The notes: generated by a model from the sequence alone, not told the origin. Positions 7,525 to 58,261 are shown, counted from the stretch's first letter. The stretch: DNA of 64,000 nucleotides from Candidatus Dojkabacteria bacterium (GCA_014729085.1 WJKM01000008.1:163-64162); one strand, 5' to 3'. Numbers and translations are program-made.

Positions 7525-8322
7525 TCAATCAAATTCATTGTAGATTTTAATCCAGGTTTTAAATTCAACTTCAGCTGACCTGAGGTTTTCATGGAGTTTA
7601 AGATTATTAAAAATAGTTTTCCAGTTTGTATCCTTATATATTGATTTTAATGTGTTTATAAGTTTTTTCCTTGGTGTCCGAAAAGCGTTTTTTAAAAATT
7701 TGGAGAAATTAACAGGATTGTCAATTTTTTCTAGACAATGTGGTCTAATTTGGATGACGGCTCCATGAACTTTAGGTCGAGGATGGAAATATTGTTTATC
7801 CACTGTGAATTCATATGTTATGTCCGAAAAGATGTGGGCGTAATTACTTAGAAATGTAGCTTTTGGGGGTTTTGCTGTGTAAGCTTCTGCAACTTCTTTT
7901 TGAATAATGAAGATACATTTTTTTGGTTTAAAGTTAGTTTCTACAAATTTGCTTATGATAGGCTTTGAAATATTGTAAGGTAATGAACCAAATACTTTAT
8001 AGGAAGTCCCTTTGTACCGTTTAAGATCGAAATTTAAGATATCTTCATTTATTATCTCAATATTACAATTAAACTGTTCGAGAAGAGCAGGACTAAATTT
8101 GTCTTTTAAAAATGATACGAGTTCTGAGTCGATTTCTACAAGATCTACTTGTGATACATTTGGGATTATACCTTCTGTAAAACGACCGTCCCCTGGACCA
8201 ATTTCTAAAATCGTGTCCGATTCCTTCATTTCTAGTAACTCCAAAGTATCAATAATTACTTTAAAATTCTTAATAAAGTTTTGCCCAAACTTTTTTTTAA
8301 AATCATGATTTTTTTTAAGCAT
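7525..8322 (-). CDS. rsmA: 16S rRNA (adenine1518/1519-N6)-dimethyltransferase
   Basis: KKKFGQNFIKN at the N-terminus and the SAM motif ILEIGPGDGRFTEGI, with KsgA-like length. Confidence 0.85.
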   Translation of the reverse strand: MLKKNHDFKKKFGQNFIKNFKVIIDTLELLEMKESDTILEIGPGDGRFTEGIIPNVSQVDLVEIDSELVSFLKDKFSPALLEQFNCNIEIINEDILNFDLKRYKGTSYKVFGSLPYNISKPIISKFVETNFKPKKCIFIIQKEVAEAYTAKPPKATFLSNYAHIFSDITYEFTVDKQYFHPRPKVHGAVIQIRPHCLEKIDNPVNFSKFLKNAFRTPRKKLINTLKSIYKDTNWKTIFNNLKLHENLRSAEVEFKTWIKIYNEFD

Positions 8323-9209: not shown

Positions 9210-10514
9210 TTATTCCAGTTTTTTACCGAGTAATTTTCTAAACTTAAGCATGGCTGTATAAGTAGGCAATACAAAAATTGTGTCATTATTATTTGCATTA
9301 TTAAAGGATTTTTCTATACATTTGTTAATATCTTCATCTAGAAAATATTCGGAATATTCATTTAGAGCATATTTAAGCCTTACCTGTAAATCCTTTGCTC
9401 GTGTACCGCCTAAAATCATCCACGTTATATCAGATTTATTTAATAACTCAAATCTAGCATCCCATATCCAAGAAATATCTTTCCCATCAGCTGTGTTGTC
9501 ATTTAAAAGTAAAATCAGTTTTAAATTCTTAACACTTCGAATCAAATCAAGATTAAGACTATAACCCGCAGGGTTCTTGACAAGAAGCATTCTAAAATTT
9601 ACTGTTTTTTCTTTATCCTTTTTAGTAATTAGTTCCCCTCGTCCGAATGCCGGATTAAATTTATTTATTCCTTTCTTTATAATATTATTTTTAATGTCAA
9701 GCAGTTTTGAAACAGTGATTGCAATAAGAACATTATAAACATGAAAATATCCGTATGCATTTAAAGTTTGAGTGTCAAATTTTATTTGTTTGTTATTGAT
9801 TTTGCCTAAAACTTCAAATTCTGAAGTAAGATTAGGTGTAACTTTTAGATTTTTTGCTTTTATATAATTTGGTACTTTGGATTTTTGTTTTGTTCTTTCT
9901 CCCTCGTACGGTAGTTCTTTAGAGAATTGATCTGGTAACGAAACATAATATGTATCATTAGGTAGTTTTTTTGTTAACTGTGAAGTTCGGGGATCGTCAT
10001 AATTTAAAATTATTTTTGCATTCGGACATTGTTCGATACCCTTTCTAATATATTTTTGTGTAATGTCTACTTCTCCATAGGCATCTAATTGATCTCTATA
10101 TAGATTTGTAACGGCAATAATCTTAGGATTTAGAACTTTGGCTATTTTTGGTAAAGTACCCTCCTCTATTTCAAAAACAGCATGTGTGCAATCAATTTTT
10201 CCAGTCAAACTGCATTGTTTTAAGATCTCTGAAAGTATTCCTCTACTTAGATTTGCACCTGCAGAATTTATAATGATATTTATGTCCGCTTCCTTGAAAA
10301 TTGAATTTAAAAGGGTTTGCGTTGTTGTTTTTCCATTTGTCCCAGTAATAATAATAATGTTTGGAATTTGACTTACTAGTTTTTGTAAAGTCCTGGGAAA
10401 ATATTTTTCTATAATTCTACCAGGTAAAGCTGTTCCGGAGCCTTCACCGGTGACTTTAAGAAACCAAGTAAGTATTTTCGAAAAGATTATTATAGGTATT
10501 AGTGTTAAGTACAT
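9210..10514 (-). CDS. murT: Mur-ligase-family lipid II isoglutaminyl synthase subunit MurT
   Basis: Mur ligase P-loop ITGTNGKTTTQTLL, followed by a C-terminal DUF1727-like region. It is paired with gatD. Confidence 0.7.
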   Translation of the reverse strand: MYLTLIPIIIFSKILTWFLKVTGEGSGTALPGRIIEKYFPRTLQKLVSQIPNIIIITGTNGKTTTQTLLNSIFKEADINIIINSAGANLSRGILSEILKQCSLTGKIDCTHAVFEIEEGTLPKIAKVLNPKIIAVTNLYRDQLDAYGEVDITQKYIRKGIEQCPNAKIILNYDDPRTSQLTKKLPNDTYYVSLPDQFSKELPYEGERTKQKSKVPNYIKAKNLKVTPNLTSEFEVLGKINNKQIKFDTQTLNAYGYFHVYNVLIAITVSKLLDIKNNIIKKGINKFNPAFGRGELITKKDKEKTVNFRMLLVKNPAGYSLNLDLIRSVKNLKLILLLNDNTADGKDISWIWDARFELLNKSDITWMILGGTRAKDLQVRLKYALNEYSEYFLDEDINKCIEKSFNNANNNDTIFVLPTYTAMLKFRKLLGKKLE

Positions 10515-15083: not shown

Positions 15084-15288
15084 AGTAAAAAATATTAAAA
15101 AATTAAATTATTATAAGTCTTATTGGTATATAAACATTCTATAAAGAAAGTTTGTTTTAATAAAACTGTTCACATTATTGTGTACACATGAATTTGCTGG
15201 GCTTGGGTAGTAGATTTGAGGAATTATTTCTTTATAAATTAATCTAGGGTATAATTTGTGATATATAAATATAGTTACACAATGGGAT

Positions 15289-16122
15289 ATGCATATAAAC
15301 ATTATTACTAGATTTCTAGAAAATTTAGATTTATCTAAGGAAGAAATCGAGGTATATGTTACCTTGCTTGATAATCCAGATATTTCTATTTCAGATTTAT
15401 CCCATGAACTAAGTATTAATAGATCAAAAGTATATAGAACACTGGATAGCCTTATTAATAAAGGATATGTGAATAAAGTATCATCGGAAAGTAAGGATTT
15501 ATTTAAAGCCAGAGGTTTTGAGTGTATAAAGCAGGCAGTATATGAAAAAGAAAAAGAGGTCGAAGCAATGAAAGAAGAATTAAACAAGATTGAACAGAAT
15601 TTTCAGTTGTTCGGATCAGGGGCAGATTTAAATATAGATGTAAAATTTTACCAGGGAAAACGGGGTATAAAACAGATGTATTGGAATGTCGCTAAATCCA
15701 AAACTGAAGTAAAAAAAATTTTGAATAAATCAGCTATTGGTTTTTTAGGAAGGCAGTATTGGGAAGATATGGTAAAGGAGCAAAAGTTAAATCAAACACA
15801 AATAAGGGTATTGTATTCCGAGAGTTTTTATAATTCAATAAAAAAAATAGATAAACAAAATTTCCGAAATTACTTTGCTCCTCCTAGCTTACAGACATAT
15901 AAATTTCTTCCAGAAGAAGTATTCAAGATAGAGAATTACTTCATATTATATGAAAATAGGACTACCGTGTTTAATTGGCATGAGAGAAGCATTTATGGGA
16001 TAGAAATTTTAAATCCGGAAGTTGCATCAATGTTATCGCAGATGTTCGACATCTTATGGAATATGGGAGGTAAGGAACATACAATTGAAGATTTGGAAAA
16101 AAGAATACTTCAAGAAAATTAG
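15289..16122 (+). CDS. TrmB-family transcriptional regulator (paralog 3 of 3)
   Basis: Paralog of the two upstream TrmB-like genes (EIEVYVTLLDNPDISISDLSHELSINRSKVYRTLDSLINKGYV). Confidence 0.65.
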   Translation: MHINIITRFLENLDLSKEEIEVYVTLLDNPDISISDLSHELSINRSKVYRTLDSLINKGYVNKVSSESKDLFKARGFECIKQAVYEKEKEVEAMKEELNKIEQNFQLFGSGADLNIDVKFYQGKRGIKQMYWNVAKSKTEVKKILNKSAIGFLGRQYWEDMVKEQKLNQTQIRVLYSESFYNSIKKIDKQNFRNYFAPPSLQTYKFLPEEVFKIENYFILYENRTTVFNWHERSIYGIEILNPEVASMLSQMFDILWNMGGKEHTIEDLEKRILQEN

Positions 16123-16123
16123 A

Positions 16124-19100
16124 TTAGATTTGATACTTTTTAATTATCTCCATTAGTTTAGCACTTGGCTTAATTTTTTTAACAATAGCATTTCTATTAG
16201 TGACACTACCGTATATAATTTTCAACGGAGTTTTTCCTTTATTCTGTATGATTAGTTTCTTGAGTTCCTCAATATTATTTTGGTCTTTTTCGTTGATGAT
16301 ATTGATGGTTATTGTCTTTGGATTCTTAATTTTATTTGCTTTATTTGCATCTTTTACAATCAAACTCAGTGATCCTTTCCGTTCATTTACGCGAACTGAA
16401 AGTATAAGAGGGGTAAATTCAGGTAAGTTATCTATCAATCTTTCGTAGGTTTTGGGAAACACTACCCCGTCTACATGTTCTAAAAGTCCTTCGATTCTTA
16501 CAAAAGCCATAGCTTTGGATCCTTTTTTAGTAAAAATAATTTTTTTGTCTGTAATCATTGCAAGTACTTTAGTGTCTCTTTCCTTGGAGGATTTCATTAC
16601 TGTTTCTATGGTTTCAATACTAGGGTTAAGAGCTTTGTTAAGATGTTTTTCCAAGGGATGATGAGATAAAAATGTTCCAAGAAGTTCTTGTTCCCATAGA
16701 ATTTTCTCCCTGTCTGTTTCAAGTTCAATTCCTTTTGGAAAGGGTGTAGCTTTAACTTCAGGTTCTTCGCCACCATTCATTAATGTAAATATTCCGGTTT
16801 GTCCACCTAATGCTCTTCGTTCATCATTTTGGATTTTTTCAAATACATCTGGAATAACTGCTAATAATTGTTTTCTTGCTCCAAATTGGTCCATAGCGCC
16901 TACTTTGGTTAAATATTCCAAATCTTTTTTTGTGATTTTTGAGGTCCCTACTCTTTTAATAAGATCATCTAAGTGTTTATACTTACCGTTTTTCTTTCTT
17001 TCATCTACTATGTTTTGCATGATTTTTTCACTTGTATTTTTTATAGCTCCCAATCCAAATCTTATAGATTTATTTTTTTCAATTTTAAAGTCAACATAAC
17101 TTTCGTTTATATCTGGGGATAATATGGGAATGCCCATTTCTTTAGCTTCGTTTAAATCCCTTGAGATTTTATCTGAGTTTCCTAAATCCGTCTGCATAAT
17201 TCCTGCCATAAATTCGAGTGGATAATGGGCTTTTAGATATGCTGTTTGATATGAAATTAACGAATAAGATGCTGCATGAGAACGGTTAAAACCATAATCA
17301 GCAAATGGTTCTAAATACGCAAATACTTCTTTGGCTAGTTTTTTTGAGTGTCCGTTTTTCTGTGCTCCTTGTATAAATCTTTTCTTTTCTTTTTTCATTA
17401 TTTCTGGTTTTTTCTTTCCCATAGCACGTCTTAACATATCTGCTTGCCCAAGGCTATATCCAGCAAATTTTACTGCTATTTCCATTACCTGTTCTTGGTA
17501 GATTGCGAATCCATAGGTGGATTGTAAAATCGGTTCTAAGTCTTCATGTAAATAGGTTACTTCTTGTTCTCCTTGTTTTCTTTTAATATAGTCAGGAATA
17601 TATTCCATAGGTCCTGGCCTATAAGCTGATGTCATGAAGAAAAGATCCTCCATTTCTGTTGGTTTTAAATCTCGGAGATATTTTTTCATACCGCTTGATT
17701 CGAACTGGAAAATCCCTGTTGTATCTCCCCTCTGGAATAATTCAAAAGTACTTTTATCATCTAAAGGGATGGAATCAATATCTATTTTTTTATTTTGAGT
17801 ATATTCTATTTGTTTCAGAACATTTTTTATAATTGTAAGGTTGGCAAGACCTAAGAAGTCAAACTTCATTAATCCCATATATTCTGCTACCCAACCTTCG
17901 ATTTGAGTAATAATTCTATCGCCTCCCTTAGTTTCTCTTTGTACAGGAACATAGTCTGTAACGGGATTGGGAGTTACTAGATAACCGCATGCGTGAGTGG
18001 AGACATGTCGAGCTACATTTTCAAGTTTTCTTACATACCCAGCTAACTCTTGTAGTTCTGGGGATGCTTCGATCATTTTCTTGAATTCAGGGACTTCTTC
18101 CATCATTTTGTCTATTGAATAAACCCGGCCAAATTTTACAATCACCATCTTGGAAAGTTTATCTGCAATATCTAGCTCTATACCCATTACTCTTGCTACA
18201 TCTCTTATAGCAGCCTTAGTCTTTAATCTACCAAAAGTCCCTATAAAAGAAGTATTTTCTTTTCCATAAGTTTTAGACATATATTCAAAGAGATCATCTC
18301 GTCTATCATCTTGGAAATCTATATCAAAATCGGGAGGTGAATTCCTTTCAGGATTTAAAAATCTTTCGAAGATAAGATTCCATTTTAGTGGGTCTATATT
18401 TACTATTCCTAAGACATAAGCAACCAGACTTCCGGCACCAGATCCTCTTCCGGGACCAATCAAAATATTCTGGTTACGAGCCCATTTGCAGTAGTCCTGA
18501 ACAATTAGGAAATAATCGTCATATCCTTTTTGGTCAATAATTTCAAGTTCATAGTCTAATCTCTGTTTAATTTCTTCAGATAAATCACCATATTTTTCTT
18601 TAGCTTTTTGATATGTCATTTCTTTTAGATATTGTTTTGCTGTTTTGTTTTTTGGGAGAGCATAATATTCGGGTTGAATACGATCAAATGTTATGTCATA
18701 TTTTTCGACCATCTCAGCTATTTTATTGGTGTTTCTAACAGCATCAGGAATATCTGAAAATAAATCATACATTTCCTTGGGGGATTTTACATAGAATTCT
18801 TTAGAGTCGTATTGTCTTCTCTCAGGATCGGTAAGTAGATTTCCATCGGAAATACACCATGCAATTTCTTGTATTTTCCAATCCTCTTTATCCAGATAAT
18901 GAGAATCAACTGTAGCAACGTAAGGGAGATTAAATTTATTTATTAATTCAAATTGTTTTTTCTCCAATCCTTCTAGCTCTTTAATATTGATCCTCATAAG
19001 TTCAAAATAGAAATCATCAAATTCATTTCCTAAGAAATTTACCCAGTTTTCAGCTTCTTCCTCATTACCATTCAACAGAGCTTGATTAATTGGACTACCT

Positions 19101-27668: not shown

Positions 27669-28871
27669 CTATCTATTGTTTAAATTTGCTTGTCTGCTTA
27701 TATTTAATAGAATTCCAAGAGCAATAAAAATAGTCACAGTTGAACTTCCCCCATAACTTATAAAAGGAAGAGGTATTCCAGTAACCGGTATAAGTCCGAT
27801 ATTTGCTCCTATATGTAAAAAAGCTTGTAGGGTTATCCAAATTACAATTCCACTGGATAGAAGCCTTCCGAAACGATCGGGAACTTTTTCGGCAATTTTT
27901 AAACCTCTAAAAAGTATATAAAAATAAATTGAAGTAAGGATCAGGCTTCCAACTAACCCAAACTCTTCGGCAATAACTGCAAATATATTATCGCTAAATG
28001 CTGTTTGTCCTAAATAATGAAATTTTTGTCTGGATTCGCCAAACCCCACACCAAAAAGGCCTCCGCTTCCTACTGCAATAAGTATGTTTTGTAATTGATA
28101 GCCTGTTCCTTTTGGATCCTGAACTTCTCCAGTTATTAAAAAATCTTTGTAAGTATTAACTCTTTTATATCTATAAGGAGCTAATATTGCTGCAAATATA
28201 CCGAAAAGGATTAGTATAACTAAAATAAATGCTGTCCCAATATTATGTAAGTAATCTCTTCCTGATAAAAAGTAAACAGCTAAAGATGTAAGTCCTATGA
28301 TTCCAGTTGTTGCTAAATCAGGTTCAAGTAATATTAATAAAGATATTAAAGTAAGAATTGTAATAAAAGGTATGAGATCCTTTTTAAGGTATTTTTCAAT
28401 ATCAACATTTTTAGTTTGAGATTTTTGTTTACTTGTCCAAGCAGCTAAATATATTAGAAAAGTAAGTTTGGTCAATTCGGACGGTTGAAGGTCAAATAAC
28501 TTCAGATCTATCCATCGGGTTGCACCGTTTATTGTTTTTCCTATTCCTGGAATTAATACTAGTATTAATAGTAGTATTGAAATACCCAAGCCTATGGCAA
28601 TATACTTGGGGTATTGTTTATAATCAATTATATACACAAAAAAACAGCATATAAGTCCTATTATTATATAAATACTTTGTCGGAAGAAAAAATAAAAGGG
28701 ATTATCTTTAACAGTTATGAAACTTGAACTATAAACCATTAATAACCCAAAAATTGAAAGTCCTAATATTAAAAAAAGTAATGTTTTATCAGGAGTACTC
28801 TTGGTAATTCGTCGTAAATTTTTTCTCCTTTTTAGTATTGTTTTCTTTCCTCTGACCATCTTGGCAATCAC
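27669..28871 (-). CDS. SEDS-family peptidoglycan glycosyltransferase (FtsW/RodA)
   Basis: Ten TM segments and a conserved C-terminal region PLPFISYGGSS. Confidence 0.8.
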   Translation of the reverse strand: MIAKMVRGKKTILKRRKNLRRITKSTPDKTLLFLILGLSIFGLLMVYSSSFITVKDNPFYFFFRQSIYIIIGLICCFFVYIIDYKQYPKYIAIGLGISILLLILVLIPGIGKTINGATRWIDLKLFDLQPSELTKLTFLIYLAAWTSKQKSQTKNVDIEKYLKKDLIPFITILTLISLLILLEPDLATTGIIGLTSLAVYFLSGRDYLHNIGTAFILVILILFGIFAAILAPYRYKRVNTYKDFLITGEVQDPKGTGYQLQNILIAVGSGGLFGVGFGESRQKFHYLGQTAFSDNIFAVIAEEFGLVGSLILTSIYFYILFRGLKIAEKVPDRFGRLLSSGIVIWITLQAFLHIGANIGLIPVTGIPLPFISYGGSSTVTIFIALGILLNISRQANLNNR

Positions 28872-49902: not shown

Positions 49903-50328
49903 TTATTTTTGCACAAGAGACCAATATAAACCTGCTTGTTTTACTGCTTCTGAGAACTGGGTAAAATCAAGAGGTTTTTGAATATAGCTATTTGCTCCTA
50001 GTTTATATCCATCAATCATATCTTTATCAAGTTCGGATGAAGTAAAAATCGCGACCGGAATATTTTTAGTATTATCATTTTCTCTGATATTTTTGAGGAC
50101 TTCTAAACCGTTAATTTTGGGAAGTTTAAGATCTAGCAGAATCAGTTGTGGTTTGTTCTCGTCAGTCCTATTTGAATATTTTCCTTGGCAATGCAGGAAA
50201 TCCAAGGCTTCCTGACCGTCAGTAACCAGATGAATTTTATTTAGAATATTATTTCGGCGCAGGGTTAGAAGAGCAAGTTCAGCATCATTTGCATCATCTT
50301 CAACTAATAATATTTCAATATTTTCCAT
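49903..50328 (-). CDS. Single-domain response regulator (REC only), paralog
   Basis: ILLVEDDANDAELA...LILLDLKLPKINGLEVLK...IFTSS...QKP. It is a paralog of 49373..49831. Confidence 0.8.
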   Translation of the reverse strand: MENIEILLVEDDANDAELALLTLRRNNILNKIHLVTDGQEALDFLHCQGKYSNRTDENKPQLILLDLKLPKINGLEVLKNIRENDNTKNIPVAIFTSSELDKDMIDGYKLGANSYIQKPLDFTQFSEAVKQAGLYWSLVQK

Positions 50329-50342
50329 GACTACAATTAAAA

Positions 50343-52811
50343 TTACAAGTTAAACTTAATATAGAAAGTCGCCCCTTTACCGGGTTTTCCGACGGCTTTT
50401 ATACTACCATTATGTTTTTCAATAATTCGTTTCACTGTAGCAAGGCCTATGCCAATACCTTCAAAATCTTTTGCTTTATGCAATCTCTGGAAAATACCAA
50501 AGAGTTGATTTTGGTATTTCATATCGAAACCTGCTCCATTATCTTTGATATAGAAACCGGTTTCATTTTGTTTTAAAGGTCCTATCTCAATCTTAGCATT
50601 TTCTGTATTGCTTGTATATTTGATTGCATTGGAGATTAGGTTACGAAATACTGTTGTCATTAATATCTCATCACATTCTAAAGTAGGTAGTTCATGTATT
50701 ATTACTTTAATTTCGTATTCGGAAATTTCATCTTCAAATTCAGATACTACTTGAGTTACTATTTCGTTAAGATCAAGCTTGGTGAGAGTAAGCGCTTTTC
50801 TTCCAATTCTAGATAGATCGAGCAATCCATCAATTAGTTTATTCATCTTTGTTATGCCATTAATAATTTTTTCAAAATATGTTTTAGCTTTGTTAGGCAA
50901 TTTATCTTTATATTCAGTATTTATTATTTGCGAAAAACCCCCTATATGTCTCAGTGGGGCTCTTAAATCATGTGATACAGAGTAGGTAAAAGCTTCAAGC
51001 TCCTCATTTGCAATTTTTAATTCCTTGGTTCTTTTACGAACCCTTTCGTCTAACTCCTTACTTAGTTTTCTATATTTTGATTCACTCAATTTCAGCTCTT
51101 TAGATGCTGTTTTTAGTTCAACAATATTTCCTATTATTTCAGAAATAGTGGTTGTTAGATTGATTGCATTGTCCGAAAATAGGTTACTATTCTTATTATC
51201 TTGTTTCGTAAGTCTGGAAAGTTCAAGTTTACCTATTATTTTGTCATTCGAACTAATAGTATGAGATATTGAATTCTCACTCTCTGAATAATTTCTAGAT
51301 AAATAGGCCTGGTTATTTACTATTATGCGTGCTGTGATTTGATCATTATTTACTGAAATTTTTGGAATTATATCCGCAATTTTTTGAATAGTCTCATTGA
51401 TTGTAAGGTCAGTTTTTTGAAGAAGTTTAGTAATATTATATAGGCAATTCAGTTCTCTAACCCGCTGGAATAATTCTTGAGTCCGCTTTTCAAGGTTTTC
51501 TTTCAATTGTTGTTCTTCGGTTACATCTTTATAAATAGCTACTATTTCTCCGGTAGATAATTTATATACATAATTATCTCTCCATCCAGCTATTCTTTTA
51601 TCTTTATACATTTTTAAGGGAAAGTGTTTGGGTTTTCCAGTTTCCCATACTTTTTGAAAAACTTCAAAAAGTCCGAATTTTTTTATACTTGGGAATATTT
51701 GTAAAACGCTTTTGCCAATTATGTCTTCTCGTTTAATTTTTTCAGTTTTTTCTGCTGCTTTATTAAAATCTTTAAAGATAAAGTCACTTCCATTATCTCT
51801 AGCCTCATATATTGCTACACAGTTGCTCATATTATCAAATAGTTCTTTAAATTTTTGTTCTGTTAAAAGTAGTTTTTCTGAGGTTTCCTTTTCGAAAGTT
51901 ATATCTCTTATAATTAACGTAAAATAGATTTCGTTTTCAAATGTATATTTACTTGGAGAAATTTCAATATTAATTATTCTTCCATATCTATCCTTACCGT
52001 ATAATCTGCTTACATTATTCTTATTTTTTATATTAGTAATTATGTTTTGAAATTTAGTTTTATTTAGCAATATTTTGGATATGTGTTTATCTAAGAGTTC
52101 GGATTCATTGTAATTAAAGATTTTTTTTGCTGCTTCGTTTAAGGATTTGATTTTAAAAGAAGAGTCGATAGAAATAATTGCTTCATTAACATTTTCTATC
52201 ACTGAATTTACGAAGTTTTCGTGTTTAGTAAATTGCTTAACTCGAATATTATTTAATGTATTTGTATTCCATTTGTATATAAGAGTAATGATGACAATGA
52301 TACTAATAAAACTAAAAATTCCATAAAAAATATCCTCTAGGGTTAAGTTTGGATGAATATATGAATATAAAGGCAGAGTTAATAAAAAAAGTAGATATGT
52401 AAAAGACAATCTTTTGATATCCTGAAATATACAGGAAATTAATACTGGTACTGCTAGAAAAGTCAACATATCTGGTAAATCTAGTCCTATATATAAAATT
52501 AGTAGAAATAAAATCCAGACTAAAATCGTGGATCCCCAGAAAATATAATTTTTTTTACTTAAAATAAAAATAATAAATAAAATAAGAATTATTAGTAAAT
52601 TTTTATCTAATAATCTAAAACTGTAGGGATTAAATATATGAGAGGATATTGTAGATAAAATTAAGAAAGACATTAATGTAAAGGACGTAAGGCTTAAGAT
52701 TTGAGATTGACGACGTAATTTAGGATCAGGAATTGTTTTAGAAGGTTTAATAATAAACTTTTTAAATTTATTAATAAATCTGAGGATTGAATTTTTAAAT
52801 TTATCCTCCAT
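50343..52811 (-). CDS. Sensor histidine kinase with polytopic N-terminal sensor, PAS domains, HisKA and HATPase_c
   Basis: About 6 TM helices and two PAS-like regions. The H-box is SHDLRAPLRHI. The HATPase N-box is NLISNAIKY and the G-boxes are KDNGAGF / GIGIGLATV. Confidence 0.8.
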   Translation of the reverse strand: MEDKFKNSILRFINKFKKFIIKPSKTIPDPKLRRQSQILSLTSFTLMSFLILSTISSHIFNPYSFRLLDKNLLIILILFIIFILSKKNYIFWGSTILVWILFLLILYIGLDLPDMLTFLAVPVLISCIFQDIKRLSFTYLLFLLTLPLYSYIHPNLTLEDIFYGIFSFISIIVIITLIYKWNTNTLNNIRVKQFTKHENFVNSVIENVNEAIISIDSSFKIKSLNEAAKKIFNYNESELLDKHISKILLNKTKFQNIITNIKNKNNVSRLYGKDRYGRIINIEISPSKYTFENEIYFTLIIRDITFEKETSEKLLLTEQKFKELFDNMSNCVAIYEARDNGSDFIFKDFNKAAEKTEKIKREDIIGKSVLQIFPSIKKFGLFEVFQKVWETGKPKHFPLKMYKDKRIAGWRDNYVYKLSTGEIVAIYKDVTEEQQLKENLEKRTQELFQRVRELNCLYNITKLLQKTDLTINETIQKIADIIPKISVNNDQITARIIVNNQAYLSRNYSESENSISHTISSNDKIIGKLELSRLTKQDNKNSNLFSDNAINLTTTISEIIGNIVELKTASKELKLSESKYRKLSKELDERVRKRTKELKIANEELEAFTYSVSHDLRAPLRHIGGFSQIINTEYKDKLPNKAKTYFEKIINGITKMNKLIDGLLDLSRIGRKALTLTKLDLNEIVTQVVSEFEDEISEYEIKVIIHELPTLECDEILMTTVFRNLISNAIKYTSNTENAKIEIGPLKQNETGFYIKDNGAGFDMKYQNQLFGIFQRLHKAKDFEGIGIGLATVKRIIEKHNGSIKAVGKPGKGATFYIKFNL

Positions 52812-52880
52812 ATAAATATTTAAGATTGAAAAATATATTTCATTTTAGCCTAATACTAATTTCATGAAAAGCTATAAATA

Positions 52881-52952
52881 AGCTGGCTATGAGATTTGAA
52901 CTCATAACCTTTCCCTTACGAAGGGAATGCTCTACCATTGAGCTAAGCCAGC
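52881..52952 (-). tRNA. tRNA-Thr (anticodon CGU)
   Basis: Minus strand: GCTGGCT-TA-GCTC-AATGGTA-GAGC-A-TTCCC-TTCGTAA-GGGAA-AGGTT-ATGAG-TTCAAAT-CTCAT-AGCCAGC-T. All four stems pair perfectly. The T-loop is TTCAAAT and the anticodon loop has CGT at positions 34-36. No CCA is encoded. Confidence 0.8.
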
Positions 52953-52998
52953 ATTTGTTGAAAATCTATTTTAATAACTAATGGGGTTTATCGTTATT

Positions 52999-53037
52999 TT
53001 CATGTCATCTAAGAATAATATCTAAGATGACATGAAA
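52999..53037. repeat. Perfect 11-bp inverted repeat (TTCATGTCATC ... GATGACATGAA) with 17-nt loop, between tRNA-Thr and the zinc-ribbon gene
   Basis: Read directly: 52999-53009 is the exact reverse complement of 53027-53037. It lies 13 nt downstream of the stop of 53051..53242 (minus) and 47 nt upstream of the tRNA 5' end. Confidence 0.5.
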
Positions 53038-53050
53038 TATGTGGAATAAT

Positions 53051-53242
53051 TTATTTTTCTTCCTCAAGCATTTCTAATGTAAAATTTTCACTCTCATCTT
53101 GATCAATTAGGGTGTATTCGATACCGCAAAATTCACATTCTACTATATCTTTGATTTTTTTTTCTTCAGAAATGGTATTTTCATTTTTACATTCATCACA
53201 GACGTAATTATTTCCATTTGATTTGATTTGAACTTCATCCAT
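53051..53242 (-). CDS. Small zinc-ribbon protein with acidic C-terminal tail (LysW/amino-group-carrier-like architecture)
   Basis: 63 aa with CDEC and CEFC (two CxxC pairs, 18 residues apart), then the acidic tail TLIDQDESENFTLEMLEEEK. It is divergent from the PLP/ATP-grasp genes. Confidence 0.45.
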   Translation of the reverse strand: MDEVQIKSNGNNYVCDECKNENTISEEKKIKDIVECEFCGIEYTLIDQDESENFTLEMLEEEK

Positions 53243-53368
53243 ATTGCTGATAAGTTTGTAATATATTAAATAGTAATGAGTTATATAGACAGTAACTTAA
53301 ATATTATACACAATAGTATAATATCATTATTTTAGATCAATTTAGTTTATACAATTATATAACATTTT

Positions 53369-54295
53369 ATGTTCAAGAAAGGAATTTGGACCTACAGTCA
53401 AATATCTGAGCTTATAGAACCTAAATATCATATTTCTTTGGGGGAAGGCGGAACTGGTATTAATGAAATTAGTTTTGAAGATCAAAAGGTATGCCTTAAA
53501 AGAGAAGATAAAAATCCAAATCAGTCATTTAAGGATAGAAGCTTGGTCTTTCAAATTGCTTTTTATTTACAGCAAGGAAAAAAACGTTTTGTAATTAGTT
53601 CTTCTGGGAATGCCGCAATAAGTGCTCTTTCCTGTTGTCAAAAGTATAATCTAGAACTTGATATATTCGTATCTAACAAAATTGAAGATTATAAATTGAA
53701 AAAAATAACTGATATTATAGATATAAAATTTGTTCATAAATCAAAGAGGCCAAAATCCGATGCAATGAAGTTTTCGAGGAAAACTGGAGCTGTTAACTTA
53801 AGAGGTTCCAAGGATGAAAAGGCGGTAATTGGTTTTCAAACAATTGCCTTCGAACTTATTAAGCAGATGCCAAATGCCGATGCTGTATTCATCTGTTGTA
53901 GTTCGGGTACAAGTACTGTAGGCATTTGGCAGGGTTATCAAGTATATAATTTTGAGGGTATATATCCACAAATTCATATTGTCCAAACAAGTAAAATTCA
54001 TCCAATAGCAAAAGAGTTTGATACTGATTTTAAGATTACCAAATCATCATTAGCAGGAGCTGTTTGTGACCGTGTTGCACACAGAAAATTACAAGTATTG
54101 GAGATTATTAGAGAATCAAATGGATCGGGTTGGGTTGTTAGTGATCAAGAATTAATAATTGTAAAAAAAAATCTAAGTGCAAAGGGAATAGAGATTGAAG
54201 GATATAATGCATATGTTTCATTTGCAGGGTTACAAAAAGCATTAAAAAACGGATTCCAGTTTGATAATCCTGTTTGTATTATTTCGGGTATTTAA
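53369..54295 (+). CDS. PLP-dependent fold-type II enzyme, cysteine-synthase/SbnA/threonine-synthase-like (beta-replacement family)
   Basis: The PLP-lysine motif is LKREDKNPNQSFKDRS. GNAAISALSCC and the glycine loop CCSSGTSTVG match OASS-family positions. At 308 aa it has OASS-like size. Confidence 0.6.
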   Translation: MFKKGIWTYSQISELIEPKYHISLGEGGTGINEISFEDQKVCLKREDKNPNQSFKDRSLVFQIAFYLQQGKKRFVISSSGNAAISALSCCQKYNLELDIFVSNKIEDYKLKKITDIIDIKFVHKSKRPKSDAMKFSRKTGAVNLRGSKDEKAVIGFQTIAFELIKQMPNADAVFICCSSGTSTVGIWQGYQVYNFEGIYPQIHIVQTSKIHPIAKEFDTDFKITKSSLAGAVCDRVAHRKLQVLEIIRESNGSGWVVSDQELIIVKKNLSAKGIEIEGYNAYVSFAGLQKALKNGFQFDNPVCIISGI

Positions 54296-54378
54296 TCCGG
54301 TTATTCAAGAAGAAAAGTTTGCGAGCTAACGATTTTACTAATTCCTCACAGCTTGCTACAGGGTAGTTTATTTTATAA

Positions 54379-55770
54379 TTGAAATTTATGGATGATCTAA
54401 ATTCGATAGTAAAAAAGATCAATAATAAGATAGGGACACGGGACTATTTCTATATTAGTAATGAAGTGGAACATGGTTTAGGATTAGCAGATTTAATACA
54501 TAACTTTAAATCAGTCTGCCTGAATTACGTTGATATAGTAGATTATCTTTATGAGGATAAGAGGGATATATTCTGTTTATTACAGCACAATCAAAAGACA
54601 AAAGTTAGGACATCAGCAGGTTTATTATCCTATTTAACTAGCAATCCTCTACCCTCCTTAATTCATGACTGGAATTTCAATGGTGCATGTTTCCAGACAT
54701 TTAAGATATCTCCTAAGTTTGAAAATTTAGTTTCTGATCTGGGTGGTGTTTTAGTAAATACACCTGCAAGGTTAAATCGTTTGTTTGAATTAAAGATAAG
54801 TCAATCTAGATTACTGGGTAAGGGCAAGATTAATATTCCCAAAACATATATTGGCGTTTTAGGAAAGTTTGATTATGACGATTTGGTAAACAAATTAGGA
54901 AGTAATTTTGTAATTCAATATAATAGAGGCCATACTGGGCAAGGGACAAAGTTTATCAAATCCCAAAAGGCTTTTAATGAAATAAAGGACTTATTTCCCA
55001 AACGTGAAGTGAGAGTCTTAGAGTATATTAAAGGACAAACATATTCTATAAATTGCTGTATGGGCAAGAATAGAATTTTTATAGGAGGTATTTATAAACA
55101 AATTACAGGAATACCTGAATTAACTTCTAAAAAGGGAGCGACAGTTGGGGGAACATGGAATCATGGCCTTCCCGAAGAAATTTTAGAAAAACTAAAGATT
55201 GAAATTTCTAAATTAGAGATTTTATTCAAACAAAATAATTATTTAGGATTGTTTGGATTTGATTTTATTTATAATTCCGAAAATCAAGAGGTAAAAATAA
55301 TTGAAATAAATGCCAGACAACAAATGACTGTTGCATTTAATTCACAGATAAATTTGCTTCAAGGATTAATACCTCTCAATTTACTGCATATTGTACAGAT
55401 TTTAAATGTAGATATAGATGTGGATATTGATGAGTACAATAAAATAGGAATGGAAGAGATTGATGCAGGGCAGCTATATTTTAGAAATCAAGCAGATATA
55501 AGCACAGATATAAAAAAAGAGATAAGAACAGGTGAATACAAACCTCAAATAGATAGTTTTGATCATGATTCTATAATAAAACAAACTTATAAAATAAAAG
55601 AAATATCTGAAGAAAATGTCTTGTTGTATACTAGAAAATACCAAGAAGAAATTTCCCCAGGCCATGAAGTAGCTAGAATTCAAGTAAAAAATAACTTATT
55701 CGATAAATCGGGAAAATTAGATACTAAATATGTAAAGTTTGTTTCACAAGTTGGTAACAGTTGTATATAA
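54379..55770 (+). CDS. ATP-grasp superfamily ligase
   Basis: Motifs FVIQYNRGHTGQGTKFI (Gly-rich ATP loop), RVLEYIKG and GLFGFDFIYNSENQEVKIIEINARQQ (compare E-x-N motif of RimK/LysX). Confidence 0.6.
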   Translation: MKFMDDLNSIVKKINNKIGTRDYFYISNEVEHGLGLADLIHNFKSVCLNYVDIVDYLYEDKRDIFCLLQHNQKTKVRTSAGLLSYLTSNPLPSLIHDWNFNGACFQTFKISPKFENLVSDLGGVLVNTPARLNRLFELKISQSRLLGKGKINIPKTYIGVLGKFDYDDLVNKLGSNFVIQYNRGHTGQGTKFIKSQKAFNEIKDLFPKREVRVLEYIKGQTYSINCCMGKNRIFIGGIYKQITGIPELTSKKGATVGGTWNHGLPEEILEKLKIEISKLEILFKQNNYLGLFGFDFIYNSENQEVKIIEINARQQMTVAFNSQINLLQGLIPLNLLHIVQILNVDIDVDIDEYNKIGMEEIDAGQLYFRNQADISTDIKKEIRTGEYKPQIDSFDHDSIIKQTYKIKEISEENVLLYTRKYQEEISPGHEVARIQVKNNLFDKSGKLDTKYVKFVSQVGNSCI

Positions 55771-55787
55771 ATTAATTGATACAGTAA

Positions 55788-56561
55788 ATGCAAAAGATAC
55801 CTAAATTGCTACAAAAACAAATTGATAAGTATTTTAACCTCCAAATTGGGAGTAAATCGGTAGTTTGTCCTTATTATATTAATCCAAAAGTAATGGTTGG
55901 TAATTTGCGGGTTATGGCAGGTAAAGGAAGTCCGAGAGAAATTGAGCATGAGACAAAAGTATGGGCAAAAGTGAAAGGCTTTGATCTTAAGAAAGCAACT
56001 TCTAAAGAAATTAGAAAATTTATGATTGAAACACATATTGGTATAGATTGCTCAGGATTCATTTCTCAAGTCCTTTCTTTGTATTTGAAGGAAAATAATT
56101 TACCCCCTTTAATCAAACTATTAAAATTCAAGAATAATAATCTCGGTAGTAAAATAAGAAGGTTTCTTAGGCCTATCGAAAATATTGGGGCCAAGACCTT
56201 GACATCCAAGGCAAATACAGTAGAAATAAAAGATTTAAACGATATTTCTGCAGGAGACTTAATTAGAGCTAAAGGAAAACAAAGAAATGCATTTCATGTA
56301 GCAATGATTGTTGAAGTAAAGAGGAATTCGGCAGGTGAGATTCAAATTTTTGAATATGTTAATTCGCATAGATATTATGAGGATCAAAACGGTGTTAGGT
56401 ATGGAAAAGTAGAAATAACTGATCCTGATGGCGAGTTGAAAAAACAGAATTGGTTAGATGAGTTGAATGGGAGAAATTATTTTTTGGAGGATTTATTAGT
56501 GGATTACGAAGATAACGGAATTAGGAGGTTAAGATTTGCAGACGAGATAGGACTGTATTAG
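55788..56561 (+). CDS. NlpC/P60-like (papain-fold) cysteine hydrolase/amidase
   Basis: The catalytic Cys is in HIGIDCSGFISQVL. The downstream segment GDLIRAKGK...NAFHVAMIVEV supplies the His, in the C40-family order. Confidence 0.45.
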   Translation: MQKIPKLLQKQIDKYFNLQIGSKSVVCPYYINPKVMVGNLRVMAGKGSPREIEHETKVWAKVKGFDLKKATSKEIRKFMIETHIGIDCSGFISQVLSLYLKENNLPPLIKLLKFKNNNLGSKIRRFLRPIENIGAKTLTSKANTVEIKDLNDISAGDLIRAKGKQRNAFHVAMIVEVKRNSAGEIQIFEYVNSHRYYEDQNGVRYGKVEITDPDGELKKQNWLDELNGRNYFLEDLLVDYEDNGIRRLRFADEIGLY

Positions 56562-56841
56562 AAAAATATTGATTATCAAAGTTGCAGCAATGCTAGTAAG
56601 AAGATATACCCAAAATAGTTTGCCTAGCGTTGCCAAACAAATTAATTGATTAAAACTCCAAATTTATATAATAACTTGATTAATTAAAGCTTTATTTAAA
56701 ATTTGATTAAAATAAAGCTATTAATTGCAACACGTTTATGTTGTCTCTCTTTAAAGTTCTTTCTTCTGAGGTTAGAATCCTACAAAAATATGGTAAAAAC
56801 TTAGAATCTAATTGAAATAATTTTATTCTCATTAAAAATCT

Positions 56842-56868
56842 TTAGCACTTGACGTTTTGGACTGCTAA
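56842..56868. promoter_or_regulatory. CIRCE operator (HrcA binding site) overlapping a sigma70-like promoter of hrcA-grpE
   Basis: TTAGCACTT-N9-GACTGCTAA has one mismatch per arm against the consensus TTAGCACTC-N9-GAGTGCTAA. The -35 TTGACG is at 56849-56854; a 17-bp spacer precedes the -10 TATATT at 56872-56877. Confidence 0.7.
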
Positions 56869-56892
56869 TGATATATTTTGTTTGTATTTTAG

Positions 56893-57648
56893 TTGCAATT
56901 TTCTATGAACGATATTGAATTAACACAAAGACAAATAAAGCTTTTGAAAGCTATTTTGAGTGAATTTATGGATACAGCTGAAGCTGTCGGGTCTTCTCAT
57001 CTACCTACTAAATATAATATTAAAGTTAGTCCAGCAACCATAAGAAATGAAATGATGCAACTTGGCAATATGGGATTATTAAGTAAAAGCCATGTTTCTT
57101 CCGGACGAAAACCAACTTCAAGAGCTTTTAGGTTTTTTATTGATGAATTATTGGATGACTTAGAAGAGATTAAAGGAGAAAGAGAAGCGAAAATACGAGA
57201 AACTATATTTCAACATCGCTTTAGTGTTGATAGGCTTTTATATGAAGCAGTTAGAAAGCTAAACGAAATTACTAACAATATATCCATAGCTGTTTTTGAA
57301 GATAGGGTTTATCATTCTGGAATTTGTGAGCTTGTAAACTACCCTGAATATCAGCAACATAGACGGTTGAAAAGCTTATTACAAGTGCTAGAAGATGTAC
57401 AAACTTTAACTGATTTATTCCAAAAGCACGCTCAGGAAGATAATGATGTTTATATATTAATTGGAAAAGATGACACTGGACTAAGTTCATTTGAAAGAAC
57501 TTCAATTGTCTTTGGCAAACTTTATTTACATGGAAACCAGGTAGGTTATTTAGCTGTAATTGGTCCTGACAGAATAGATTATTCTCAAGTTATCCCATCA
57601 GTCAAATGGATGATTAAAACTGTCAATAAAAGTGTTCAAGGATGGTAA
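56893..57648 (+). CDS. hrcA: Heat-inducible transcription repressor HrcA
   Basis: N-terminal wHTH region IRNEMMQLGNMGLLSKSHVSSGRKPT and HrcA-like length. The track start at 56893 is TTG; the first ATG is 56905. Confidence 0.85.
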   Translation: MQFSMNDIELTQRQIKLLKAILSEFMDTAEAVGSSHLPTKYNIKVSPATIRNEMMQLGNMGLLSKSHVSSGRKPTSRAFRFFIDELLDDLEEIKGEREAKIRETIFQHRFSVDRLLYEAVRKLNEITNNISIAVFEDRVYHSGICELVNYPEYQQHRRLKSLLQVLEDVQTLTDLFQKHAQEDNDVYILIGKDDTGLSSFERTSIVFGKLYLHGNQVGYLAVIGPDRIDYSQVIPSVKWMIKTVNKSVQGW

Positions 57649-57694
57649 TTCTTCTTTTTAAATAACCAATAGATTAACTATTAAGTAAATATTT

Positions 57695-58261
57695 ATGTCT
57701 AAAAAACAAAAGGAAAAGTCAAATAAAAAAGAACAAAAAAAATCAGTCAAAAAAGATAAGGATCAAAAGGATGTAAGTAAAAAAGTTGATAATAAAAACT
57801 TAGAAGAAAAAATTAAAGATTTGGAAGAAAGACTGCAGGAAGAAAAAGAAAGTAGACTTGTTGCACTAGCAGATTTTGAAAACTATAAGAAGAGAGTTCA
57901 AGCTGAAAAGGAACAGCTTAATCTTCTTGCAAATGCGACAGTATTAAATCTTGTTCTCGAAGTACTTGATGATCTCCAAAGAGCAATGCAGGATATGGAG
58001 GAAGTTCCAGCAGGTTTGTCAATGATTGAGGGTAAGATTACTAATCTTTTAGAAGAACAAGGCTTAGAACAAATCAATGTAGAAGAAGGGGATGAATTCG
58101 ACCCCAAATTAATGGAGGCTCTTGGAACCGTAACTGTTGAAGATAAAGAGAAAGATGGAAAAGTAATTCATTTAGAAAGAAAAGGATATAAATTTAAAGA
58201 TAAAGATATAATTGTGAGAGGAGCGAGGGTGATTGTTGGAAAAAAAGAAACGAAATCTTAA
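57695..58261 (+). CDS. grpE: Nucleotide exchange factor GrpE
   Basis: Lys-rich N-terminus, coiled coil, ALADFENYKKRVQAEKEQ and a C-terminal beta-domain. Confidence 0.85.
   Translation: MSKKQKEKSNKKEQKKSVKKDKDQKDVSKKVDNKNLEEKIKDLEERLQEEKESRLVALADFENYKKRVQAEKEQLNLLANATVLNLVLEVLDDLQRAMQDMEEVPAGLSMIEGKITNLLEEQGLEQINVEEGDEFDPKLMEALGTVTVEDKEKDGKVIHLERKGYKFKDKDIIVRGARVIVGKKETKS

Follow-up and report, generated by a model that had tools for sequence, protein, structure and literature searches.

A LysW-fold carrier with an invariant C-terminal lysine in a conserved four-gene module of Patescibacteria, with a possible role in peptidoglycan precursor supply

Introduction

The LysW or amino-group carrier protein (AmCP) systems, which include LysW-LysX-LysZ-LysY-LysJ-LysK of Thermus, the ArgW/LysW proteins of Sulfolobus and Thermococcus, and the AmCP clusters of Streptomyces, are the nearest known relatives of a four-gene module encoded in DNA from a Candidatus Dojkabacteria bacterium (GCA_014729085.1 WJKM01000008.1:163-64162; this whole stretch of 64,000 nucleotides is referred to as the window). 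The module, at positions 53,051 to 56,561, comprises a zinc-ribbon mini-protein, termed LysW-K and referred to as the carrier, a pyridoxal phosphate (PLP) enzyme, an ATP-grasp ligase, and an NlpC/P60 protein. In LysW, the γ-carboxylate of the terminal Glu is the attachment point. The module shares with the LysW/AmCP systems a very acidic carrier with a zinc-ribbon globular fold (PF21344) and the logic of an ATP-grasp loader, a PLP-dependent modifier, and an unloading hydrolase. The main differences are that its carrier ends in Lys, a likely amine handle, rather than in the Glu of EDWGE; that its ATP-grasp enzyme is not of the RimK/LysX type; that its PLP enzyme is of fold-type II and ThrC-like, whereas LysJ is a fold-type-I aminotransferase; that release would fall to an NlpC/P60 cysteine amidase instead of the M20 metallopeptidase LysK; and that its genomic context is one of cell-wall genes and not of lysine or arginine biosynthesis. 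Unlike in LysW clusters, no genes for the LysZ kinase, the LysY reductase, LysJ, or LysK are found near the module. Canonical LysW-dependent lysine or arginine biosynthesis was rejected as its function on the basis of the Lys end, the lack of LysX, LysZ, LysY, LysJ, and LysK genes, and the cell-wall gene context.

Other systems resemble the module in part. By analogy rather than by detected homology, CysO-CysM-Mec+ of Mycobacterium and HcyS-MetY-HcyD also combine a carrier C terminus, a fold-type-II PLP β-replacement enzyme, an ATP-dependent activator, and a releasing peptidase. Their carrier is ubiquitin-like with a GG-thiocarboxylate, their activator is an E1-like adenylyltransferase, and their peptidase is a JAMM metalloprotease, in contrast to the Lys-terminated zinc ribbon, ATP-grasp enzyme, and NlpC/P60 protein observed here. 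A second analogy is provided by BtrI, BtrJ, BtrK, and BtrG of butirosin biosynthesis, in which a carrier, an ATP-grasp enzyme, a PLP enzyme, and a release enzyme act on a tethered amino acid with γ-glutamyl protection; however, BtrI is a phosphopantetheinyl acyl carrier protein that uses a thioester link, the pathway is one of secondary metabolism, and no homology to the module is detected. In PylC and in Aslfm, the Enterococcus faecium D-aspartate ligase (compared by description only), the acceptor lysine is not that of a carrier but is free (PylC) or part of the pentapeptide linked to uridine diphosphate N-acetylmuramic acid (UDP-MurNAc; Aslfm), and the module ATP-grasp enzyme is about 12% identical to PylC. 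Glutathionylspermidine synthetase/amidase (GspSA) has the reversed domain order, lacks a carrier and a PLP enzyme, and acts on small-molecule substrates in redox buffering.

No description of the module was found in the searchable full-text literature on LysW, the candidate phyla radiation (CPR), amidoligases, or amino-group carriers. An earlier note on this DNA, written from the sequence alone, did not recognize the four-gene combination. Database names for the proteins are 'hypothetical', 'ATP-grasp domain-containing', 'C40 family peptidase', 'sulfonate ABC transporter', and 'LysW', and none of the proteins has a specific annotation. We rate the module as new as a variant of carrier-protein-guided amino-acid metabolism, near the boundary of something new. 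The reading that we favor, tentatively and short of calling it probable, sees in the module an 'inverted LysW' carrier system by which an amino acid destined for peptidoglycan, as one of its building blocks, would be supplied or modified.

Conservation and Fusion of the Four Genes

Scanned with a pattern, the GTDB species, each represented by a single genome, returned 332 relatives of the ATP-grasp ligase. Open reading frames (ORFs) called in the loci were searched iteratively with the four window proteins, and 85 non-redundant related loci were compared. The best 80 relatives all come from metagenome-assembled genomes of Patescibacteria/CPR and include Dojkabacteria, Magasanikbacteria, Uhrbacteria, Colwellbacteria, Nomurabacteria, and unclassified lineages, with a few dubious automatic labels. 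The full four-gene set is present in 56 of the 85 non-redundant loci. Among the 54 loci that extend 5 kb or more to either side of the module, 46 have the full set; the latter count settles in the affirmative a point on which the earlier note had made its proposal depend, namely whether the four genes are conserved together in related genomes. Of the 77 loci that have both an ATP-grasp and an NlpC/P60 gene, 69 show the two side by side, overlapping, or fused, and the carrier and PLP genes are divergent neighbors in 53 of the 59 that have this pair. Three distant carrier homologues, used as starting points, led to the same four genes every time, and the grouping is far beyond chance. The ATP-grasp family comprises 881 representative clusters at E ≤ 1e-30 and the carrier family up to 1662 clusters.

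Fusions connect the enzymes further. The ATP-grasp enzyme is fused to a module-type NlpC/P60 domain in L083 (676 amino acids, aa), L089 (681 aa), and P0285; in P0388 and P0378, the NlpC/P60 domain joined to it is of a more canonical kind. In P0383, it is fused to a module-type PLP domain that shares 30% identity with the window enzyme across 224 aa, the NLxxSxD segment included. Because these Rosetta-stone fusions link them, the three enzymes are assigned to one pathway. The four proteins constitute one conserved, sometimes fused module that is widespread in Patescibacteria. A sizable part of bacterial diversity belongs to the CPR, most of which are uncultured and whose minimal genomes contain little that is dispensable.

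Pairs and fusions of a ligase with a papain-like hydrolase also recall, by analogy, PafA/Dop and the Gsp synthetase/amidase, and could be read as a pupylation-like tagging system. The ATP-grasp enzyme would then join the C terminus of the mini-protein to an amine of a protein or wall precursor, the NlpC/P60 protein would serve as de-conjugase, and the PLP enzyme would be a target or regulator. A small protein with an invariant C-terminal residue suits a tag, and Braun lipoprotein is joined to peptidoglycan via its C-terminal Lys. We nevertheless consider tagging highly improbable: it leaves no role for the tightly linked PLP enzyme, which is fused in P0383; the carrier is a homologue of LysW, and LysW proteins are metabolic carriers; and a cytoplasmic carrier cannot reach the sacculus.

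There is some variability in the arrangement of the loci. In Dojkabacteria, including the window, the four genes are contiguous and are often flanked by hrcA-grpE-dnaK. In 25 loci, the gene for a 171-aa class-I S-adenosylmethionine methyltransferase with weak similarity to Erm, KsgA, and CARME separates the PLP gene from the ATP-grasp gene (L046:6259-6774 plus 24 further Dojkabacteria loci; see also L003:5440-5955). It is not part of the module in the window, where the sole match is an ordinary KsgA/RsmA-type gene at 7525-8322. In another Dojkabacteria locus (L001:3225-5242), histidine-phosphatase and DUF772 transposase-like genes lie between the PLP and ATP-grasp genes, so the module tolerates interruption. 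Homologues of the ATP-grasp enzyme that have no carrier and PLP genes within 8 kb (L050, L053, L056, L071, L073, and L006/L007) may be paralogues with another role; in L050 and L056, an NlpC/P60 gene lies about 3 kb away on the opposite strand, and the context in L006 is type-IV-secretion-like. The labels 'uncultured Gammaproteobacteria' and 'Candidatus Saccharibacteria' attached to some module loci look unreliable, as the content and similarity of these loci (L070, L074-L078, L083, L088, L011, L015, L016, and others) match Magasanikbacteria- or Dojkabacteria-type CPR loci.

The Carrier

The carrier of the window contains two CxxC pairs, CDEC and CEFC, and an acidic tail, LEMLEEEK, with 19 Asp and Glu residues versus 6 Lys and Arg residues over 63 aa. 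Taken alone it falls below the threshold of the LysW models (PF21344, 7e-4; NF041070, 6e-5); its homologues bear PF21344 in precomputed annotation. A family profile built from 20 sequences and searched against PDB structures retrieves LysW structures first (5k2m_E, 2.4e-7; 3wwl_A, 8.9e-7), with RNA-polymerase, ribosomal, and other zinc ribbons at 0.008 or worse, and the globular consensus of the family, CPECxNEIxL...GDIxECxxCGIELEV, mirrors LysW. On these comparisons the mini-protein is assigned as a true LysW-fold zinc ribbon, as the earlier note had suspected from the CxxC pairs and acidic tail. A ribosomal or RNA-polymerase zinc ribbon, the kind of unrelated family that the note had considered fatal to its proposal, was tried and rejected (E ≥ 0.01 versus about 1e-7 for LysW with the family profile).

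Among 59 distinct carrier sequences from the loci, 58 terminate in Lys, and the remaining one is cut by a contig end. The best 120 database matches are all Lys-terminated as well (EEEK in 64, DEGK in 50, and EEGK in 6), and further tails in the loci read EDEK, ETEK, QEEK, DREK, DMMK, EMMK, and DMIK. The penultimate residue is thus variable (Glu, Gly, Met, or Ile), whereas the final Lys is constant in about 180 complete homologues, and it is for this reason that the terminal Lys is taken to be the working group of the carrier. Judged from the alignments, the invariant C-terminal Lys is the defining difference of this family from LysW. The earlier note had counted the Lys end against a LysW-like reading; the residue is real, but, being invariant across the family, it is no anomaly. 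By charge counts, basic residues prevail in the PLP enzyme and in the amidase, and the carrier is very acidic, the same contrast as in LysW systems, in which an acidic carrier meets basic enzymes.

A long variant of the carrier, of 106-142 aa, is encoded in six loci (L033:6014-6442, L040:5766-6146, L049:6120-6500, L052:6086-6454, L058:5996-6316, and L065:6018-6425). It has a low-complexity N-terminal extension and an insertion of about 20 residues between the CxxC pairs, and it retains the Lys end in tails such as DMMK, EMMK, DMIK, and DREK.

The ATP-Grasp Ligase

The predicted structure of the ATP-grasp enzyme (predicted local distance difference test score, 93.9) comprises three domains. Its sequence scores above cutoff only for the generic ATP-grasp_3 model. 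The 'biotin carboxylase' model NF005096 aligns along the full length at 103 bits versus a cutoff of 684, the carbamoyl-phosphate synthase model reaches 20 bits versus 1027, and Dala_Dala_lig has no match in the sequence. In structural comparisons of the predicted model, Ddl and VanA score 17-19, and LysX, ArgX, and RimK score 16.6-17.1 with about 100 fewer residues aligned; identity to every structural neighbor is 9-16%. From the predicted structure, the enzyme resembles the group of PurK, PurT, L-amino-acid ligases, PylC, BesA, and PGM1 rather than RimK/LysX-type ligases. It does not group firmly with the housekeeping enzymes RimK, D-Ala-D-Ala ligase, or carbamoyl-phosphate synthase, any of which the earlier note would have taken as evidence against its proposal. 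Enzymes of the PurK, L-amino-acid-ligase, and PylC type activate the carboxylate of a small molecule as an acyl phosphate. The acceptor that is acylated is free lysine for PylC and a peptide amine for PGM1; the product of BesA is a γ-glutamyl amide.

The resemblance to BesA, PGM1, RizA, and BacD-type natural-product ligases, together with the occurrence of PLP and ATP-grasp pairs in the cycloserine and rhizocticin clusters, would also suit a secondary-metabolite cluster, in which a non-proteinogenic β-substituted alanine made by the PLP enzyme is built into a dipeptide antibiotic and the NlpC/P60 protein provides maturation or self-resistance. The earlier note had offered a dipeptide-type metabolite with a self-resistance amidase as its second reading. 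We regard this as the remotest of the explanations weighed here: relatives of the ATP-grasp enzyme occur in 332 species-representative CPR genomes and form several hundred representative clusters; the synteny is stable, with the module inside Mur/MraY clusters; and transporter, nonribosomal peptide synthetase, and resistance genes are not consistently nearby. Vertical conservation in hundreds of genome-reduced CPR species, within cell-wall clusters, makes it unlikely that the second reading of the note is right.

In a Magasanikbacteria-type clade, the ATP-grasp enzyme is extended at its C terminus by a NUDIX domain whose Nudix box is intact (L084:7677-9293, L085:7950-9665, and L087:7719-9383). 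A stand-alone NUDIX gene recognized by Pfam (L008:13892-14440) lies between the genes for a MurC/Mpl-like ligase and the carrier, and an unannotated 182-aa ORF near the module in L074 is probably another. The NUDIX association is a hint of a nucleotide-linked substrate, for instance a UDP-MurNAc-peptide.

The PLP Enzyme

The PLP enzyme contains an invariant PLP-binding Lys55 in SFKDR, an SSSGNAA loop, and an SSGT phosphate loop. NCBIfam ThrC models match it at 1.6e-33 to 9e-13, dehydratases at about 1e-11, SbnA at 9e-6, and cysKM at 7e-3, all far under their cutoffs (NF004170, 115.9 bits versus 421; TIGR00260, 48 versus 167; SbnA, TIGR03945, 25 versus 350; cysKM, TIGR01136, 15.7 versus 344). 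A profile of the family searched against the PDB gives the same ranking, with ThrC at 3e-32, Thr dehydratase and Ser/Asp racemases at about 1e-19 to 1e-21, and CysK/SbnA at about 1e-13, and it aligns end to end with the ThrC structures 2zsj, 6cgq, and 2d1f (3e-32 to 5e-27). In the alignment to 2zsj, the 'SvNpyR' segment of ThrC corresponds to 'LRGStDdka' in the module enzyme; the Arg column is not conserved, and a new near-invariant Arg145, five residues upstream of that column, and Asp149 are found instead. The ThrC counterpart of this remodeled segment presumably holds the phosphate-binding Arg (N-P-x-R motif) for O-phosphohomoserine. The enzyme is best described from its sequence as threonine-synthase-like, closest to ThrC, and it is not called a threonine synthase because the phosphate-Arg segment is remodeled. 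As proposed in the earlier note, it is a fold-type-II enzyme of 308 aa with the motif NPNQSFKDR; the O-acetylserine sulfhydrylase (OASS)/SbnA-like character given to it there does not stand, ThrC being closest by both NCBIfam and the PDB profile, and a cysteine synthase/SbnA identity is ruled out by the scores (about 1e-13 for SbnA/CysK versus 3e-32 for ThrC).

Kinship with ThrC suggests an alternative role for the terminal Lys, as the scaffold of a β-replacement reaction similar to that of CysO/CysM/Mec+. The ThrC-like enzyme would make aminoacrylate from O-phosphoserine or a similar substrate, and the ε-amine of the α-N-protected terminal Lys would attack it to form a lysinoalanine-type diamino-dicarboxylic acid on the carrier. 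The NlpC/P60 enzyme would clip off the modified Lys as a diaminopimelate (DAP) surrogate for MurE, and the ATP-grasp enzyme would re-ligate free Lys onto the shortened carrier. ThrC-like chemistry fits better here than in the carrier cycle set out below, and β-replacement enzymes, cysteate synthase among them, belong to the ThrC lineage. A carrier makes chemical sense as a means of blocking the α-amine; the substrate would be the invariant Lys, and a variable penultimate residue would be tolerated if only its α-carboxylate matters. The scheme is unlikely all the same. Enzymatic reloading of Lys should let some lineages lose the encoded residue, and none of about 180 complete sequences has; the position of the ThrC Arg, which we take to bind phosphate, is not conserved; lysinoalanine is three atoms longer than DAP; and the class of the ATP-grasp enzyme disfavors it.

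The NlpC/P60 Amidase

The NlpC/P60 papain-like fold of the 257-aa protein and its intact catalytic Cys88-His170 pair are confirmed, in accord with the Cys in GIDCSGF and the His in HVAMIV to which the earlier note had pointed. No signal peptide, hydrophobic N terminus (maximum KD19, 1.01), or wall-binding domain is found in the protein. Unlike typical secreted members of the family, it is by sequence a cytoplasmic NlpC/P60 amidase, comparable, we presume, to YkfC. The bond typically cleaved by the NlpC/P60 family is γ-D-glutamyl-Lys/DAP.

Peptidoglycan Gene Context

The neighboring genes of the loci, clustered and annotated, reveal a context that the earlier note had not included. MraY is encoded within 8 kb of the module in 40 loci and immediately after the NlpC/P60 gene in 23 of them. 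A cluster of MurC/Mpl-like ligases, which also takes in a few MurE, MurF, and true MurC sequences, is represented in 27 loci and adjoins the carrier gene in 15, an ATE/Bpt-like aminoacyl-tRNA transferase is found in 22, and MurB in 20. Further neighbors are FtsW, MurG, MurA, true MurC, a MurD-like ligase, MurE, MurF, and FemAB/Fem-type proteins. Outside Dojkabacteria, the genes usually run in the order ATE-like, MurC/Mpl-like, carrier (minus strand), PLP enzyme, ATP-grasp, NlpC/P60, MraY, FtsW, and MurG. The module is usually embedded in a Mur/MraY cluster. Retained across several CPR classes and tied to this cluster, it is probably important for wall building.

Such a context could also be occupied by wall enzymes acting on free metabolites. 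The PLP enzyme would then be a fold-type-II racemase, the ATP-grasp enzyme a non-orthologous D-Ala-D-Ala or D-Ala-D-X ligase, and the NlpC/P60 protein a cytoplasmic LD-carboxypeptidase or endopeptidase in stem-peptide recycling or proofreading; the LysW-like protein would do no more than regulate the PLP enzyme or support it structurally. The module occupies a frequent place of ddl in dcw clusters, and no Ddl homologue was detected with jackhmmer in about 90 loci or in the window, a weak negative that covers only about 8 kb around the module in each locus and was obtained with an E. coli DdlB query. The PLP profile also matches Ser and Asp racemases at about 1e-20, and the SSGN loop, in what we take to be its role, is similar. 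Fusions of peptidoglycan enzymes are common, as in the MurC-Ddl and MurF-Alr NCBIfam models, and a MurC/Mpl-like paralogue adjoins the module. Against these points, free-metabolite enzymes would have no use for a LysW-fold protein whose terminal Lys is invariant and whose gene lies beside the PLP gene in nearly all loci having both, and they leave the repeated ATP-grasp-NlpC/P60 fusions unexplained. We judge this arrangement improbable.

The MurC and Mpl models give the MurC/Mpl-like paralogue nearly equal scores, under both cutoffs (L064:4277-6525, L080:12904-14313, L090:9636-11814, and about 20 others), and the paralogue differs from the true MurC of the same locus (L064:13680-15086). It is paired with the ATE/Bpt-like aminoacyl-tRNA transferase directly upstream of the carrier gene. 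The MurE enzymes encoded near the module (L005:13166-14449, L028:15867-17165, L047:11478-12896, L026:14470-15756, and L035:7674-8972) score as DAP-type; NF001126 is above cutoff only in L005 and L028, with L047 just below. Their motif is EDPR, which is ambiguous, being neither DNPR, presumably the motif of DAP-adding MurE, nor Lys-type, and it is consequently uncertain which residue these CPR bacteria have at position 3 of the stem peptide. For the scheme in which the terminal Lys becomes a DAP surrogate, the DAP-type MurE near the module, passing NF001126 in L005 and L028, and the Arg kept in EDPR are points in favor. In L064, a fold-type-III PLP decarboxylase (15117-16508) follows murG-murC; it is speA/lysA-like, matching the arginine decarboxylase model at 1.6e-53 and the DAP decarboxylase model at 1e-39. 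In the window, a MurT-like ligase is encoded at 9210-10514 on the minus strand (MurT_C, 1.6e-31), which implies that the D-isoglutamate of the stem peptide is amidated in this organism, and an FtsW/RodA homologue at 27669-28871, also on the minus strand.

A Possible Inverted Carrier Cycle

In the inverted LysW cycle that we tentatively favor, the ATP-grasp enzyme would convert a small amino acid, at its carboxylate, to an acyl phosphate and pass the acyl group to the ε-amine of the terminal Lys of the carrier. Attachment to the carboxylate of the acidic C terminus is unlikely and the Lys ε-amine is the better site, because the Lys end is invariant and the ATP-grasp enzyme is not RimK/LysX-like. 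The simplest candidate for the tethered substrate would be Glu or Asp linked via the side-chain carboxylate, since a free α-amino-acid head group then remains. The ThrC-like enzyme, which needs a free α-amine, would therefore act on this head group, by epimerization to the D-form or by β/γ-replacement. The cytoplasmic NlpC/P60 amidase would cut the isopeptide bond, handing the product to the Mur ligases and regenerating the carrier. Glu tethered by its γ-carboxylate, epimerized, and freed as D-Glu would fit both the γ-D-glutamyl specificity of NlpC/P60 enzymes and the Mur context, and is offered as a guess. Relative to the first reading of the earlier note, in which the ATP-grasp enzyme loads the acidic tail of a LysW-like carrier, the LysW-type carrier and the conserved, sometimes fused genes are retained, and the acidic-tail attachment, the RimK/LysX-type ligase, and the OASS/SbnA-type PLP enzyme are not.

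Several points weigh against this cycle. The kinship of the PLP enzyme with ThrC fits β-replacement better than epimerization; ThrC and its relative cysteate synthase eliminate phosphate. A four-protein route to the product of a single racemase is not parsimonious in reduced genomes, and Saccharibacteria, at least, have a tested MurI, according to a reference cited in PMC11974145. Nor does the cycle account for the associated NUDIX domain, small methyltransferase, or ATE/Bpt-like transferase. Finally, the module of the window is not beside Mur genes, the MurT-like and FtsW/RodA genes being the only such genes elsewhere in the window.

In its widest form, held with somewhat greater reserve as a possibility, the proposal is that the CPR have a new class of carrier, with a LysW fold and reversed polarity, in a route that is driven by ATP, is specific to the lineage, leads to an essential peptidoglycan building block, and replaces a canonical racemase, Ddl, or DAP step. 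If the carrier model is correct, LysW-type chemistry, which serves the lysine and arginine pathways of thermophiles and archaea, would extend to wall metabolism in the CPR, with the attachment chemistry reversed and an enzyme set wholly different from that of LysW systems. The module would then represent a new enzyme trio for carrier-guided amino-acid modification and a non-canonical step in peptidoglycan precursor supply, as well as a CPR-specific marker and possible target.

The Locus in the Window

The features of the locus are collected in Table 1. Translation of the ORFs bears out the four genes described in the earlier note and all of the motifs cited there: the two CxxC pairs, LEMLEEEK, NPNQSFKDR, GHTGQGTKFI, KIIEINARQ, GIDCSGF, and HVAMIV. 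For the ATP-grasp gene, an alternative TTG start at 54379 would give a protein of 463 aa; the ATG is the likelier start, because the NCBI model has 460 aa.

Table 1. Features of the four-gene module and the adjacent tRNA gene in the window
Feature	Position	Strand	Remarks
tRNA-Thr(CGT)	52881-52952	-	downstream of carrier gene
Carrier LysW-K (LysW-fold zinc ribbon, assigned by sequence)	53051..53242	-	ORF, 63 aa, Lys63 terminal
Divergent intergenic region between carrier and PLP genes	53243..53368	.	126 bp, A+T-rich
ThrC-like fold-type-II PLP enzyme	53369..54295	+	ORF, 308 aa, PALP 6e-36
Three-domain ATP-grasp ligase (predicted)	54388..55770	+	460 aa (ATG start)
NlpC/P60 (C40) cysteine amidase/peptidase, predicted cytoplasmic	55788..56561	+	ORF, 257 aa, Cys88 and His170

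The NlpC/P60 gene begins 17 bp past the end of the ATP-grasp gene. The G+C content is about 30% throughout, and there is therefore no sign of an island. No hydrophobic segment is found in any of the four window proteins, so that all are placed in the cytoplasm. The intergenic region is presumed to hold a shared promoter of the carrier and PLP genes; scans of it gave weak promoter-like matches only and no Rfam element, and a terminator scan was uninformative. No riboswitch or T-box was found within 52500-57000. An anti-phage defense system was considered and rejected, as PADLOC models match nothing beyond zinc-ribbon noise.

Upstream, a PAS-domain histidine kinase and a response regulator are encoded at 49903-52811 on the minus strand. 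Downstream, hrcA-grpE follow at 56893-58261 on the plus strand; other Dojkabacteria loci, L003 among them, have hrcA-grpE(-dnaK) in the same place behind the NlpC/P60 gene, which probably reflects just the synteny of the lineage.

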